32,000 nt of DNA from Vibrio mangrovi (lineage in GTDB: Bacteria > Pseudomonadota > Gammaproteobacteria > Enterobacterales > Vibrionaceae): assembly GCF_024346955.1 (NCBI RefSeq), contig NZ_AP024884.1:610230-642229 (forward strand). Reading direction: 5' to 3'. The notes under the pieces were generated by a model. It was not told the origin of the DNA, ran no database searches, and saw only the letters and a list, made by a program, of their open reading frames with translations. A program made the translations under genes and the position numbers. Shown piece by piece: positions 13,129-30,663 of this stretch. How positions within the stretch are numbered: position 1 is the first letter of the stretch; each line of letters starts with the position of its first letter.

Positions 13129-13186
13129 TTGACCTTCCGTTGGTGAAGAGTTAAAAAGCCGCATGCTTTAATAGCGGCTTATGGTT

Positions 13187-13504
13187 TCATTTTGATTGGT
13201 AAGCTTCTTTCATCTCTTTCATTACGAAGACAATTGCTGTGGCTTGTTTTTCATCGAATCCGGCATTGACTAGTCTGTTAATGTTGTGACGAATTTTTTC
13301 ATATTCTATCTTTACTTCTTGATCTGACAGGGACTTTTCTTTTAATGCCTCTAACGGGGATAGTTTTCTTAATGTCCAGGATCCGTCGTCGTTGTCTATC
13401 CATTGGATGACATCACTTTCTTCCCATTGTAATTCTTTTTGGATTTCATCAGGAATGAGGAAGTAGGACTCTCCATCTTCGTTTTTTTCTATTGTAACTT
13501 TCAT
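13187..13504 (-). CDS. AbrB/SpoVT/MazE-like small DNA-binding protein (copy 1)
   Basis: 105 aa. The N-terminus MKVTIEKNEDGESYFLIPDEIQKELQWEESDVIQWIDNDDGSWTLRK fits the swapped-hairpin AbrB-type pattern. It lies downstream of, and in an operon with, the XRE repressor. At the left-most copy only, a terminator hairpin (aagccgc / gcggctt) spans the duplication edge. Confidence 0.55.
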   Translation of the reverse strand: MKVTIEKNEDGESYFLIPDEIQKELQWEESDVIQWIDNDDGSWTLRKLSPLEALKEKSLSDQEVKIEYEKIRHNINRLVNAGFDEKQATAIVFVMKEMKEAYQSK

Positions 13505-13516
13505 GATAGACCTTGG

Positions 13517-14062
13517 TTACTTGGATTGTTCTTTTGACTTAATGATTTTTATTGTCTGAAGAGCTTCGCTTCCACTTAAACCAAATTCGTTCATCAGGGT
13601 GAATGCCGCTTCTTTTTCACTTTCGGTATCGTTAACTATTTGTTCTACTTTTTTCACTATTCTGTTGGTTTTTACAGCGTTTTCGCCAAACAGATCTCTT
13701 ATTTTACCTTCTTCTTGTAGTGTTTCTTCGGCCTCTTGAGATATCTGTTTCATTCTACTCTTCATTAAGAGGGCTTCGGATAGTTTTACTAATATCTCTT
13801 TTTCTTCGTCTCCCATTTGTCCGATGCTTGACATTAAGTATTGCTCGGCTTTGTCCTGACATTCGTAAGGTTCAGAAATTAGTTCATTGACCGTAACACA
13901 TAGATAGGATGCCAGTTGCTTTAATGTAGATACTTTGGGTTCACTTCGCCCTGTTTCGTACTCAATGAGAGTTCTTTTCGATACCCTGATTGCTTTAGCG
14001 ACATCTTCTTGTGTGAGTTCCATTTTTATTCGTGCTTGCTTGAGTTTTTCTGCAAATGACAT
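13517..14062 (-). CDS. XRE-family helix-turn-helix phage repressor (RstR analogue), copy 1
   Basis: The internal start MSFAEKLKQARIKMELTQEDVAKAIRVSKRTLIEYETGRSEPKVSTLKQLASYL is a canonical XRE HTH N-terminus. It is divergent from the replication gene. The longer 240-aa track ORF would overlap the rep start. Confidence 0.8.
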   Translation of the reverse strand: MSFAEKLKQARIKMELTQEDVAKAIRVSKRTLIEYETGRSEPKVSTLKQLASYLCVTVNELISEPYECQDKAEQYLMSSIGQMGDEEKEILVKLSEALLMKSRMKQISQEAEETLQEEGKIRDLFGENAVKTNRIVKKVEQIVNDTESEKEAAFTLMNEFGLSGSEALQTIKIIKSKEQSK

Positions 14063-14185
14063 CTCATTTGTCCCTATAAAGACATTTATTCTCACATTAT
14101 ATATGCAGTTTTTATCACCACACCCTTGAGGTGATGAAAAGATTACTTTATCATTGAGGAAAAATGCACTTGACAGGTTTTTGGA
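14063..14185. promoter_or_regulatory. Divergent repressor/replication control region (copy 1)
   Basis: 123-bp AT-rich spacer between divergent genes. It contains the inverted repeat atcacc...ggtgat (14114-14135) and TTGACA-like and TATA-like hexamers. Operators were not defined. Confidence 0.4.
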
Positions 14186-28684: not shown

Positions 28685-29038
28685 GTGAGTAACAGAGACA
28701 AGAAATTATTAAAACGTAAGAGGAAAGCTCAGAAAAACAATAAAGCTAAAAATAAAAATGGTGGGCTATTTTTTACACCTAAAGGAATTCAGATAATGGA
28801 AACTCTTTCGTCTGTTGAAGACATGGATTGTTTCGATATACCTGTTCCAGAAGTTGGCGCATACAAAGATGATTTGGATCACTACTTTCGAATTTTATCT
28901 GTATCCGAAAGAGATCCTGAGGGGAATTTTATCGTGAGTTACTGCGATATTGTAGATGGTGTTGATATGCCTTCAGAAAATTTAAGTGCTAATGACTGGA
29001 TAGAGCTTTCAGTGCTTTGTAGCCCAAAGTTATTGTAA
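28685..29038 (+). CDS. Hypothetical protein upstream of the bacteriocin gene (copy 2)
   Basis: Identical to 19945-20298 (offset +8740). Confidence 0.5.
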   Translation: MSNRDKKLLKRKRKAQKNNKAKNKNGGLFFTPKGIQIMETLSSVEDMDCFDIPVPEVGAYKDDLDHYFRILSVSERDPEGNFIVSYCDIVDGVDMPSENLSANDWIELSVLCSPKLL

Positions 29039-29087
29039 AAAATAAAAATTATTTACTTAATTCTTAGTCAGTAGGCAGGTCTCATTT

Positions 29088-30383
29088 ATGTCATCGAAAG
29101 ACGGTAAGATTGTTTGGTGGGTTAAAGCAACAAAGGTCGCAGCAGAACCTAAAATTATCCACTGGACACCTAAAACAATCCCGAATCCGGATAGCCCGGA
29201 ACCCGCAGAGAAAGCCCAATCGCTCACGCTCAAAGAACGTCTTGAAAAACAGCGGCTGGAGAATATCAAGGCGAATGATAAAGCATTTGAAGAAGTGCAG
29301 CACAATCAGCAACTCAAACGCTTTGCTAAATCGCTATCAATCCCTTCAGGTACTTGTGACATCGGTACACAACGAGAGCCGTTGTCTTCGATTGGTCAGT
29401 ATGCCGCTTATACGGCATCGCTTAACAATGGTATAGCAGAAGCGGGCAGTGTATCCCGTGTTGCAGGCCAGGCGCTGGCTGAAATTGAAGGAATGGCTGT
29501 CCGGCTGATTGGTCTGGCTCCAGCCGCTGCGACTGTGGTGTTAGGTGTATTAATCCCCAATCAACTGGCAGACGGCACTTTGTATAAGGAATCAGAAATC
29601 CGACACAAATCAAAGGTGAAAACAAATATTCGTTTAGGGGCGGATGATAACGGCCAGCTCTATGGCTACCATGTCAACGGTACAGACATCCCAAGGCGTA
29701 GTGTTCGTCAGCAAGGTGATAAATTCGTTGTGGATTTAGAGCCGGGGATCACGATTGAGTGGGTGCCGGCTAGCGGAGATTTTGGCGGTAAACCGATCCT
29801 TGTTAATCCGATCCCGGACATGGAAAAGCTGGATGTCTGGGTGCATCCACAGGTCGATCAGGGTAAAGAGTTTGAAAAAACTTACATTACCCCGATTGAG
29901 GATACCGACCTAAAAGATTACATTCTGACATTCCCGGCAGATACCGGACTACCTCCGTTATATGTGGTTTATAAAGAAAGCCCCCGGAATGAATCGGGTG
30001 TTGTGACCGGGAACGGTGAAGATGTAACTGGCTTATGGCTGGAAGCAGCCGGAAAAGAGTTAGGTTCTCCGGTGCCATCACAAATTGCGGATAATCTCAG
30101 AGGTCGAGAGTTCAGTAGTTTTGACAGCTTCCGGAAAGCGTTCTGGCTGGCTATAAGTGAAGATGAAAATCTAATGTCGCAGTTTAATCGAAATAACCAA
30201 AAGAAAATTAGAGCAGGAAAAGCGCCGTTTGCTCCACAGGATCAGAAGTATGGTGAAACAATGAGATTTGAGATTCACCACATAGAAGAAATACAACATG
30301 GCGGTGCCGTCTATGATGTTGATAATATGAGAGTCGTTACCCCTAAGAATCATAAGAGAATCCATTATGGAGATAAGCAATGA
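29088..30383 (+). CDS. S-type pyocin / colicin E-type HNH DNase bacteriocin (copy 2)
   Basis: Identical to 20348-21643 (offset +8740). Confidence 0.9.
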   Translation: MSSKDGKIVWWVKATKVAAEPKIIHWTPKTIPNPDSPEPAEKAQSLTLKERLEKQRLENIKANDKAFEEVQHNQQLKRFAKSLSIPSGTCDIGTQREPLSSIGQYAAYTASLNNGIAEAGSVSRVAGQALAEIEGMAVRLIGLAPAAATVVLGVLIPNQLADGTLYKESEIRHKSKVKTNIRLGADDNGQLYGYHVNGTDIPRRSVRQQGDKFVVDLEPGITIEWVPASGDFGGKPILVNPIPDMEKLDVWVHPQVDQGKEFEKTYITPIEDTDLKDYILTFPADTGLPPLYVVYKESPRNESGVVTGNGEDVTGLWLEAAGKELGSPVPSQIADNLRGREFSSFDSFRKAFWLAISEDENLMSQFNRNNQKKIRAGKAPFAPQDQKYGETMRFEIHHIEEIQHGGAVYDVDNMRVVTPKNHKRIHYGDKQ

Positions 30384-30637
30384 TGCAGTTTAAGAACAAT
30401 CTCTCTGAGTATACGGAACAAGAATTTACTCAGTTTGTTGAACTTATTTGTGATAATGAATTGTCTGAATCGGAAGAAGATAAACTGGTTAGTCACTTTT
30501 CAAAGATAGTTGATCACCCAGATGGTACAGATTTAATCTTTTGGCCTAAGGATGGTCAGGATGATTCTCCAAAAGGCATTGTTGCTGAGGTTAAACGATG
30601 GCGAACGTCACAGGGTTTGCCATGCTTTAAGGACTGA
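30380..30637 (+). CDS. Colicin/pyocin DNase immunity protein (copy 2)
   Basis: Identical to 21640-21897 (offset +8740). Confidence 0.9.
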   Translation: MMQFKNNLSEYTEQEFTQFVELICDNELSESEEDKLVSHFSKIVDHPDGTDLIFWPKDGQDDSPKGIVAEVKRWRTSQGLPCFKD

Positions 30638-30663
30638 TTCAGTCTTTTTTTTAAATTCCTCAT

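Follow-up and report, generated by a model that had tools for sequence, protein, structure and literature searches.

An att-less tandem duplication in a dif-integrated filamentous prophage of Vibrio mangrovi has one endpoint at the predicted nick of the phage replication origin

The analyzed window (32,000 nucleotides of the Vibrio mangrovi assembly GCF_024346955.1, contig NZ_AP024884.1, positions 610,230 to 642,229 of the forward strand) contains a filamentous prophage inserted at a dif site, the native length of which is 11,432 nt. In the window the prophage consists of a single left arm (L) and two perfect tandem copies of a unit designated C, and the joint between the copies has no attachment (att) site. 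The duplicated segment was shown to extend from the predicted nick of the gene II protein (pII), the phage replication initiator, at 13169^13170 to a T8 tract situated 14 nt short of the phage's right end. Window positions are used throughout, and the structure described is that of the assembled sequence.

In a period scan of the window, period 8740 gave a single identity run, which extends over 8,743 nt without a break (13167-21909 equal to 21907-30649), and identity runs at the neighboring periods did not exceed 11 nt. The run corresponds to two 8,740-bp copies followed by three shared T (30647-30649). The perfect 8740-bp tandem duplication within one dif-integrated element, claimed in a preliminary description of this DNA, was thus borne out; sequence differences between the copies, named there beforehand as an argument against it, were looked for over the full copies and 0 mismatches were found. 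The parts of the structure are as follows.

10492 to 13166, + strand: left arm L, single copy, with the att hairpin, ORF187, non-coding DNA, ORF220/232 and the left stem arm of the (+)-strand origin
Left edge of the repeat (L/C boundary): ...AAGCCGCATGC-TTT-AATAGCGGCTT..., broken as gcatgcTTT / AATAGC; junction string gcatgcTTT/AATAGCGGC
13167 to 21906, + strand: copy 1 of unit C, as delimited by the period scan
21900 to 21920, + strand: att-less joint cagtcTTTTT / AATAGCGGCTT, reading ...GATTCAGTC-TTTTT-AATAGCGGCTT..., with T5 at 21905-21909; junction string cagtcTTTTT/AATAGCGGC; diagnostic sequence cagtcTTTTTAATAGCGGC
21907 to 30646, + strand: copy 2 of unit C, identical to copy 1
Right edge of the repeat: ...GATTCAGTC-TTTTTTTT-AAATTCCTCAT-AGTGCGCATTATGTACGTTATGTTAAAT, the last being dif; breakpoint context cagtcTTTTTTTT / AAATTCCTCAT

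According to Pfam and PHROG matches, unit C carries the complete core gene set of the Inoviridae, and the dosage of the bacteriocin, its immunity protein and all phage genes is certainly doubled in the assembled structure. The open reading frames (ORFs) and related features are given below for L and for copy 1 of C.

10745 to 11308: ORF187, in L
12466 to 13164, - strand: ORF220/232, in L, a 220-aa product in public annotations and 232 aa from a longer start
In copy 1 of C, - strand: ORF105
13517 to 14239, - strand: helix-turn-helix (HTH) repressor
14186 to 15763: pII initiator, 525 aa, Pfam Phage_CRI + G2P_X_C
15765 to 16079: RstB-like protein (Pfam/PHROG)
16086 to 16558: small coat proteins, the major coat protein being phrog_6548
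16693 to 18171: pIII-like protein, assigned from position and PHROG alone
18155 to 18493: Ace/pVI-like protein, phrog_974/306
18502 to 19626: Zot/pI (Pfam/PHROG)
19626 to 19767: hairpins, after zot
Between these hairpins and the bacteriocin gene: ORF117
20348 to 21643: HNH-DNase bacteriocin, 431 aa, Pyocin_S + Col-Pyo_DNase
21640 to 21897: immunity protein, 85 aa, 3' of the bacteriocin gene

The Xer sites were searched for with the 28-nt dif, allowing up to 3 mismatches, and with a half-site scan with spacers of 5-12 nt. Only three sites were detected in the whole window.

10492 to 10525, + strand: attL/attP1, left end of the prophage, AGTGCGCATTA-TGTCACCCGTCA-TTATGTTGAGG, 12-nt spacer
10650 to 10678, - strand: attP2, AATGCGCATTA-TTCGACA-TTATGTTACGG, 7-nt spacer
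30664 to 30691, + strand: regenerated chromosomal dif, right end of the prophage, AGTGCGCATTATGTACGTTATGTTAAAT = AGTGCGCATTA-TGTACG-TTATGTTAAAT, perfect over 28 nt
Junction strings: attL acaaaaca/AGTGCGCATTATGTCACC; attR ttcctcat/AGTGCGCATTATGTACG; att-att ttcctcat/AGTGCGCATTATGTCACC

The XerC arm at 10492-10502 is common to attL and dif, and its start, read differently before, was corrected to 10492. The attP1 site pairs with attP2, and the region 10488-10684 folds as a forked hairpin of single-stranded DNA (ssDNA; -39.2 kcal/mol, z -2.86). Integration at dif with dif regenerated, together with two inverted Xer-like sites in a forked hairpin, places the prophage among the integrative mobile elements exploiting Xer (IMEX) of the CTXphi type. 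No recombinase family match was found among the phage ORFs scanned and no phage integrase gene was seen. A 321-aa tyrosine recombinase gene (Phage_integrase family; locus L003, 7980-8945) lies near dif, approximately 2 kb past the right end of the window and beside ddl.

In the half-site scan neither unit C (8,740 bp) nor the joint contained an Xer-like site scoring 16/22 or more, and both scans found none in 21880-21940. A cryptic Xer site at the joint or inside the unit was rejected on these grounds. Hence, the reconstituted att that marks every junction of an Xer-made array is absent from this joint. The lack of an Xer site at the joint and the single att hairpin to the left of the array, both described before, were confirmed. 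The further claim, that successive Xer integrations did not produce the array, held only in part: the present joint is not Xer-made, but the statement on the history of the locus does not follow. Such a history is compatible with the locus because an identical strain has an [L C][L C] array made by Xer, from which the loss of the inner 2,692 bp would give exactly the present structure.

The sister assemblies were compared by exact-protein look-ups and BLAST. A single-copy version, which the preliminary description proposed to look for in related strains, is present in GCA_900184095.1 (FXXI01000003.1, 523 kb), where window 3187-21909 is directly joined to 30650-32000 with 100% identity over 18.7 + 10.1 kb. 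The second assembly, GCA_033542575.1 (JAWRCO010000002.1, 1.34 Mb), also 100% identical, contains two full units of 14 genes each, separated by the att region; the protein accessions for pII, ORF187 and the immunity protein are paired 14 apart. Since the sister assemblies show L+C as a single copy and as full tandem units, the native phage is 11,432 nt long (L + C + 14 nt). The 11.4-kb phage unit proposed before was therefore right, whereas the transcription terminator put forward in its support was not, as described below.

The initiator encoded in C is 31-33% identical to the gene II products of IKe and f1 over 80% of its length and, having the Phage_CRI and G2P_X_C domains, does not belong to the RstA family. 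Upstream of its gene, at the left boundary of the repeat, lies a hairpin that is complete only there.

13156 to 13182, + strand: complete (+)-origin hairpin AAGCCGC / ATGCTTTAATA / GCGGCTT, with the left arm AAGCCGC at 13156-13162, the loop ATGCTTTAATA and the right arm GCGGCTT at 13174-13180
To about 13200, + strand: conserved downstream element GGTTTCATTTTGATT, 3' of the hairpin

The hairpin aligns column for column with the f1 origin (GAGTCCAC GTTCTTTAATA GTGGACTC) and with the IKe origin (GAGTCCAC TATGTTTAATA GTGGACTC), and the IKe record itself annotates the structure as the viral-strand origin stem-loop. The same architecture was found upstream of the pII genes in six further loci. In the covariation set of nine sequences (this phage, f1, IKe and the six loci) the TTTAATA loop is invariant in 9/9, and 95.8% of stem cells are paired versus 77% in shuffles, a value reached by 0/500 of them. 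Compensatory changes occurred in six of the eight stem pairs, and pairing was destroyed when the partners were slid.

The plasmid pTLC of V. cholerae (NC_004982.1) carries at 673-713 a segment 97.6% identical over 41 nt to window 13157-13197 (GAGAGCCGC-ATGCTCTAATA-GCGGCTTATGGTTTCATTTTGATT), approximately 700 nt upstream of its annotated II/X-family replication protein gene, the product of which we take to be Cri. The loop reads CTCTAATA in pTLC versus CTTTAATA in this phage. The closest pII relative (68% identity), on the metagenomic contigs L042 and L043, has the hairpin AAAAGCCGC-atgctttaata-GCGGCTTTT about 200 nt downstream of its attP1. The origin is not conserved universally in the clade, as the closest tblastn loci (L011-L014) lack a hairpin with a perfect stem. 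The origin motif gave 0 matches in IMG/VR and one short metagenome contig.

Comparison of L042 2641-2870 with window 10685-13155 showed that approximately 2.5 kb (ORF187, 1.1 kb of hairpin-rich non-coding DNA and ORF220/232) are interposed in V. mangrovi. The interposed DNA is apparently an accessory module.

In f1, pII cuts at TTCTTT^AATA (PMC4403547), between nucleotides 5781 and 5782 (PMC11765958). By homology, the nick in the V. mangrovi phage is predicted at TTT^AATA, 13169^13170. The TTT microhomology allows the repeat boundary to be drawn in any of four registers, from 13166/67 to 13169/70, and the last of these is the predicted nick. A random left breakpoint would fall in one of the four nick-including registers with a probability of approximately 4/11,432, i.e., 3.5e-4 (our calculation). 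The alignment and the covariation identify a (+)-origin of the Ff/IKe/TLC type in place of the terminator assumed in the preliminary description. The hairpin reported there at the left edge is indeed present and complete only at this place, and its left arm lies at 13156-13162, not at 13150-13156. The conservation pattern is that of a pII origin, and a transcription terminator was rejected as the identity of the hairpin, which may also terminate ORF105.

The origin loop has as its core the 8-mer TGCTTTAA, for which the window holds 14 sites versus 1.9 expected from shuffles (0/100 shuffles reach 14). Its sites include 12979, 13164, 13917, 14454-, 14547-, 20382- and 21883 (a minus sign marking the reverse strand), and a single-copy phage has seven.

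The origin also bears on another explanation offered before, in which a dimer of an independent att-less 8.74-kb phage had inserted illegitimately into a small resident IMEX. It would account for the 8.74-kb unit holding every recognizable phage gene and for a left arm without recognizable phage function. It is contradicted, however, by the origin hairpin, which straddles the L/C boundary, takes its left arm from L and is complete in the relatives compared, by the attP lying directly upstream of the same origin in those relatives, and by the two sister assemblies, in which L+C forms a single Xer unit. We regard such an insertion as very improbable.

The right breakpoint lies within the first five T (30645-30649) of a T8 tract, 14 nt before the XerC arm. 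Two features surround it.

30632 to 30652, + strand: terminator-like hairpin GACTG-ATT-CAGTC followed by T8, after the immunity gene
21881 to 21890, + strand, recurring at 30621-30630: CATGCTTTAA, 3' end of the immunity gene

Outside the origin, CATGCTTTAA is the only place in the phage where 10 nt of the origin loop are repeated, and it is situated 17-21 nt upstream of the breakpoint; the chance of finding it within 25 nt of the right breakpoint is approximately 4e-3 (our calculation). Recombination between two CATGCTTTAA copies was ruled out, as the joint keeps 19 nt beyond this pseudo-site. The joint retains the 3' half of the origin, from the nick core through the right arm to the downstream element; the left stem arm is gone, and the origin hairpin is not formed.

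These features raised a hypothesis that the joint arose by illegitimate joining linked to pII-driven rolling-circle replication and anchored at the origin nick, to which we assign a probability of roughly 55%. The protein would nick the origin and hold the 5' end AATAGCGG...; persistent attachment of pII to the 5' end after nicking is claimed in the title of Asano et al. 1999, a reference cited by PMC4403547. The held end would then be joined to CTTTTT-3'OH (...GTCTTTTT-3'OH) in the T-tract ending the upstream C copy and not to the normal GCTTT-3'OH. Three routes may have led there. In route (a), the inner 2,692 bp (14 nt + att + L) would be lost from an Xer-made [L C][L C] array, a route attractive because such an array exists in the identical strain. 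In route (b), a single prophage would undergo rolling-circle replication, in the course of which the nascent and the displaced strand would be joined. In route (c), aberrant termination would yield an 8.74-kb circle, which would enter C of the prophage by homologous recombination. All three would give the same product, and sequence alone does not separate them.

In M13 and pC194, illegitimate recombination that depends on the initiator is reportedly recognized by endpoints at the origin nick (Michel and Ehrlich 1986). The genomes of defective-interfering f1 particles reportedly have such endpoints as well. In the V. mangrovi prophage one endpoint falls at the predicted nick when the boundary is read in register 13169/70.

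Several observations weigh against pII-linked joining. The nick position is derived from homology and not from mapping. The right breakpoint resembles the nick site on the 5' side only (CTTTTT versus GCTTT), the likeness between GTCTTTTT-3' and TGCTTT-3' being limited to C and the T-run. Cleavage at TTT^AAA in the T8 tract was also considered and rejected; it would leave eight T, and the joint has five. Both breakpoints lie at or beside hairpins and T-runs, which are generic hot spots of slippage. The joint is present in one assembly only, since the contigs of the short-read set ERR1893544 branch at att alone and JAWRCO010000002.1 has att between the copies, and it gave 0 matches in IMG/VR and the JGI metagenomes.

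Some of these points suit generic slippage or template switching with no role of pII, between T-runs 8.74 kb apart in the case of a duplication or 2.69 kb apart in the case of a deletion within an array; the match to the origin nick would then be coincidental or due to the hairpin structure only. The 3-nt T microhomology at the joint, the stem-loops at both breakpoints (the origin hairpin on the left, GACTG-ATT-CAGTC with T8 on the right) and the unconvincing mimicry of the nick site at the right breakpoint are all as slippage would have them. Microhomologies of 3 nt are ubiquitous, however, so the coincidence with the nick register (approximately 3.5e-4) is left unexplained. The closest match to the origin loop, less than 25 nt from the other breakpoint, and the nick endpoints reported for M13, pC194 and f1 also speak against slippage. 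Slippage alone appears quite unlikely to us.

The public read and assembly data bear on whether the chromosome has the assembled structure at all. The Logan short-read contigs of ERR1893544 end at window 10521 and 30648, probably through branching of the k=31 graph where the reads also hold the phage-phage att junction. In the same data ORF187 and ORF105 are each located on a Logan contig of 10-20 kb, which implies no branch at 13167 in those reads. Exact look-ups placed ORF105 in six and ORF187 in five places over four contigs; these numbers fit a fourth contig (>1 Mb) that has C twice and L once and from which the window itself probably comes.

Mis-threading of the assembly would mean that the chromosome is truly [L C] or [L C][L C], and that the joint came from extrachromosomal molecules such as an 8.74-kb deletion variant or rolling-circle concatemers or from an error of the assembler. 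Three 100% identical public data sets with three structures (a single unit, two full units and that of the window), the Logan contigs ending at the att branch points with no branch at 13167, and two perfectly identical copies, as expected of a concatemer artefact, all speak for it. On the other hand, assemblers do not invent novel junctions, so many reads must carry the joint; a junction on the origin nick by chance is as improbable as calculated above, and the place counts fit a public assembly at chromosome scale in which C occurs twice and L once. Mis-threading is unlikely in our view, though to be taken seriously, and even then the joint would be a real origin-anchored product.

A search of genome contigs with a pII profile yielded 29 loci. 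In V. algivorus the array has a period of 6313 and an att at every junction. V. parahaemolyticus CP150864.1 (L040/L041, approximately 1.725-1.757 Mb) has a complex dif array, in which repeats of a 4,735-bp element are followed by a 6,998-bp relative (pII 67% identical) present at least three times in tandem, again with att at every junction. The arrays of relatives compared (L018 and L040/L041) and the sister array of JAWRCO010000002.1 thus all have an att at the junctions. The att-less joint did not recur in the V. algivorus or V. parahaemolyticus arrays. With genes for a pII of 432 aa, a Phage_DNA_bind protein and an HTH repressor but none for Zot, the 4,735-bp element looks like a satellite.

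The prophage combines features of several known systems and is apparently a chimera of CTX-like hairpin integration with a pII and origin like those of Ff, IKe and TLC. The satellite phage TLCphi uses a different, XafT-dependent strategy of Xer attachment. TLCphi/pTLC shares the pII/Cri-family initiator and a nearly identical origin core with the V. mangrovi element, which in contrast is a complete phage with a hairpin attP of the CTX type. In the rearrangements of M13/pC194 and of f1 miniphages (Ravetch/Horiuchi; Horiuchi 1983) one endpoint is reportedly exactly at the nick and the other at a weakly similar or T-rich site. Those were deletions or duplications in episomal genomes under laboratory selection, whereas here a chromosomal IMEX underwent a duplication or an array-internal deletion. 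Horiuchi 1983 also appears in the reference list of PMC11996451.

In the CTXphi arrays of V. cholerae El Tor, rolling-circle replication that runs between the origins of two successive copies makes the phage ssDNA. With these arrays the prophage shares dif integration via a forked hairpin, the regeneration of dif on the right side, tandem copies, Zot/Ace-like and RstB-like proteins and an HTH repressor in divergent orientation. It differs in the att-less joint, the initiator of the pII/Cri type instead of RstA, the second origin reduced to a half, and the att hairpin with 2.5 kb of accessory DNA present once. For prophages of the CTX type, tandem insertions or two origins are needed for ssDNA release, the left site being masked (PMC4439123). 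In V. cholerae of the classical biotype a truncated and an intact CTXphi form an array at dif that is expected to be unproductive (PMC8265649), so there too the neighboring units are not both complete; that truncation removes structural genes downstream of the interior of cep, whereas here all genes are kept, att and L are missing, and one endpoint is at the predicted nick. With Ff and IKe the element shares TTT^AATA in a hairpin with an 11-nt loop and a pII homologue, the hairpin lying upstream of the pII gene and co-oriented with it. In the engineered two-origin cassettes of f1 (microphage/Ff-nano) the copied unit is delimited by a pII cut site on either side, and truncated origins are partly functional (PMC4403547). 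The truncated terminator origin of the cassettes lacks the 3' pII-binding part, whereas in this natural chromosomal prophage the 5' arm is missing. In a survey of Vibrio inoviruses, dif-like motifs were used to set the limits of arrays (PMC12715192). An IMEX of the CTX type, an origin of the Ff/TLC type and illegitimate joining at an origin nick are each known, and their combination, represented by this single instance, was not found described.

Termination of rolling-circle replication reportedly needs more sequence 5' of the nick than initiation (Dotto and Horiuchi). By analogy with f1, the second origin, deprived of the 5' stem arm, may initiate and would probably terminate poorly. Release of an 8,740-nt circle, in which the joint would have to serve as the termination signal, is possible but doubtful, because the joint lacks the 5' part that termination needs. 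It is improbable that [L][C][C] is a working production template, in which rolling-circle replication would free 8,740-nt circles, either by running from the full origin as far as the half-origin or by starting anew at the latter. If it were, the circles would carry every phage gene and the DNase bacteriocin with its immunity protein and would lack the att hairpin; a pII-made rearrangement would thus turn an integrative phage into an episomal, non-integrating, bacteriocin-spreading variant, and initiator-driven joining at the origin would be a natural route to remodel, amplify or truncate IMEX arrays.

Tandem arrays decide on virion production of the CTX type and are usually read as records of successive Xer integrations. 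If the joint is real, the rolling-circle initiator of the phage can rewrite such arrays at the origin nick, and att-less duplications or array-internal deletions double the cargo and probably alter whether phage is made and which phage it is. The locus offers a testable case of illegitimate recombination at an origin nick outside the laboratory M13 and plasmid systems, and for annotators it means that repeats in dif arrays are not always bounded by dif-like motifs.

The prophage is flanked by pntAB, a DUF3404 histidine kinase with a response regulator, DUF2861, TraF-like and Fe-ADH genes, a neighborhood that we take to be that of Vibrio chromosome 2. The cargo bacteriocin operon spans 20348-21897 and, in copy 2, 29088-30637. 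For the bacteriocin, of the S-type pyocin/colicin-like kind, the best solved relatives were klebicin G, colicin E7/E9 and pyocin S8/S2/AP41, and V. ruber and V. spartinae have relatives of the immunity protein that are at least 90% identical. No family match for ORF187, ORF232 and ORF117 was obtained in PADLOC, PHROGs and Pfam, and Rfam returned no family. Besides a 60-nt non-coding match and the pTLC origin, no close relative was found in the phage and plasmid collections.

Just past zot, at 19626-19767, two very stable ssDNA hairpins were noticed (z -7.35). Inoviruses of Vibrio cyclitrophicus (PQ189297-PQ189303) have non-coding DNA, without annotation in their records, that matches the segment 19717-19777 at 95-98% identity. 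The whole region 19626-19777 is a candidate packaging signal or (-)-strand origin.

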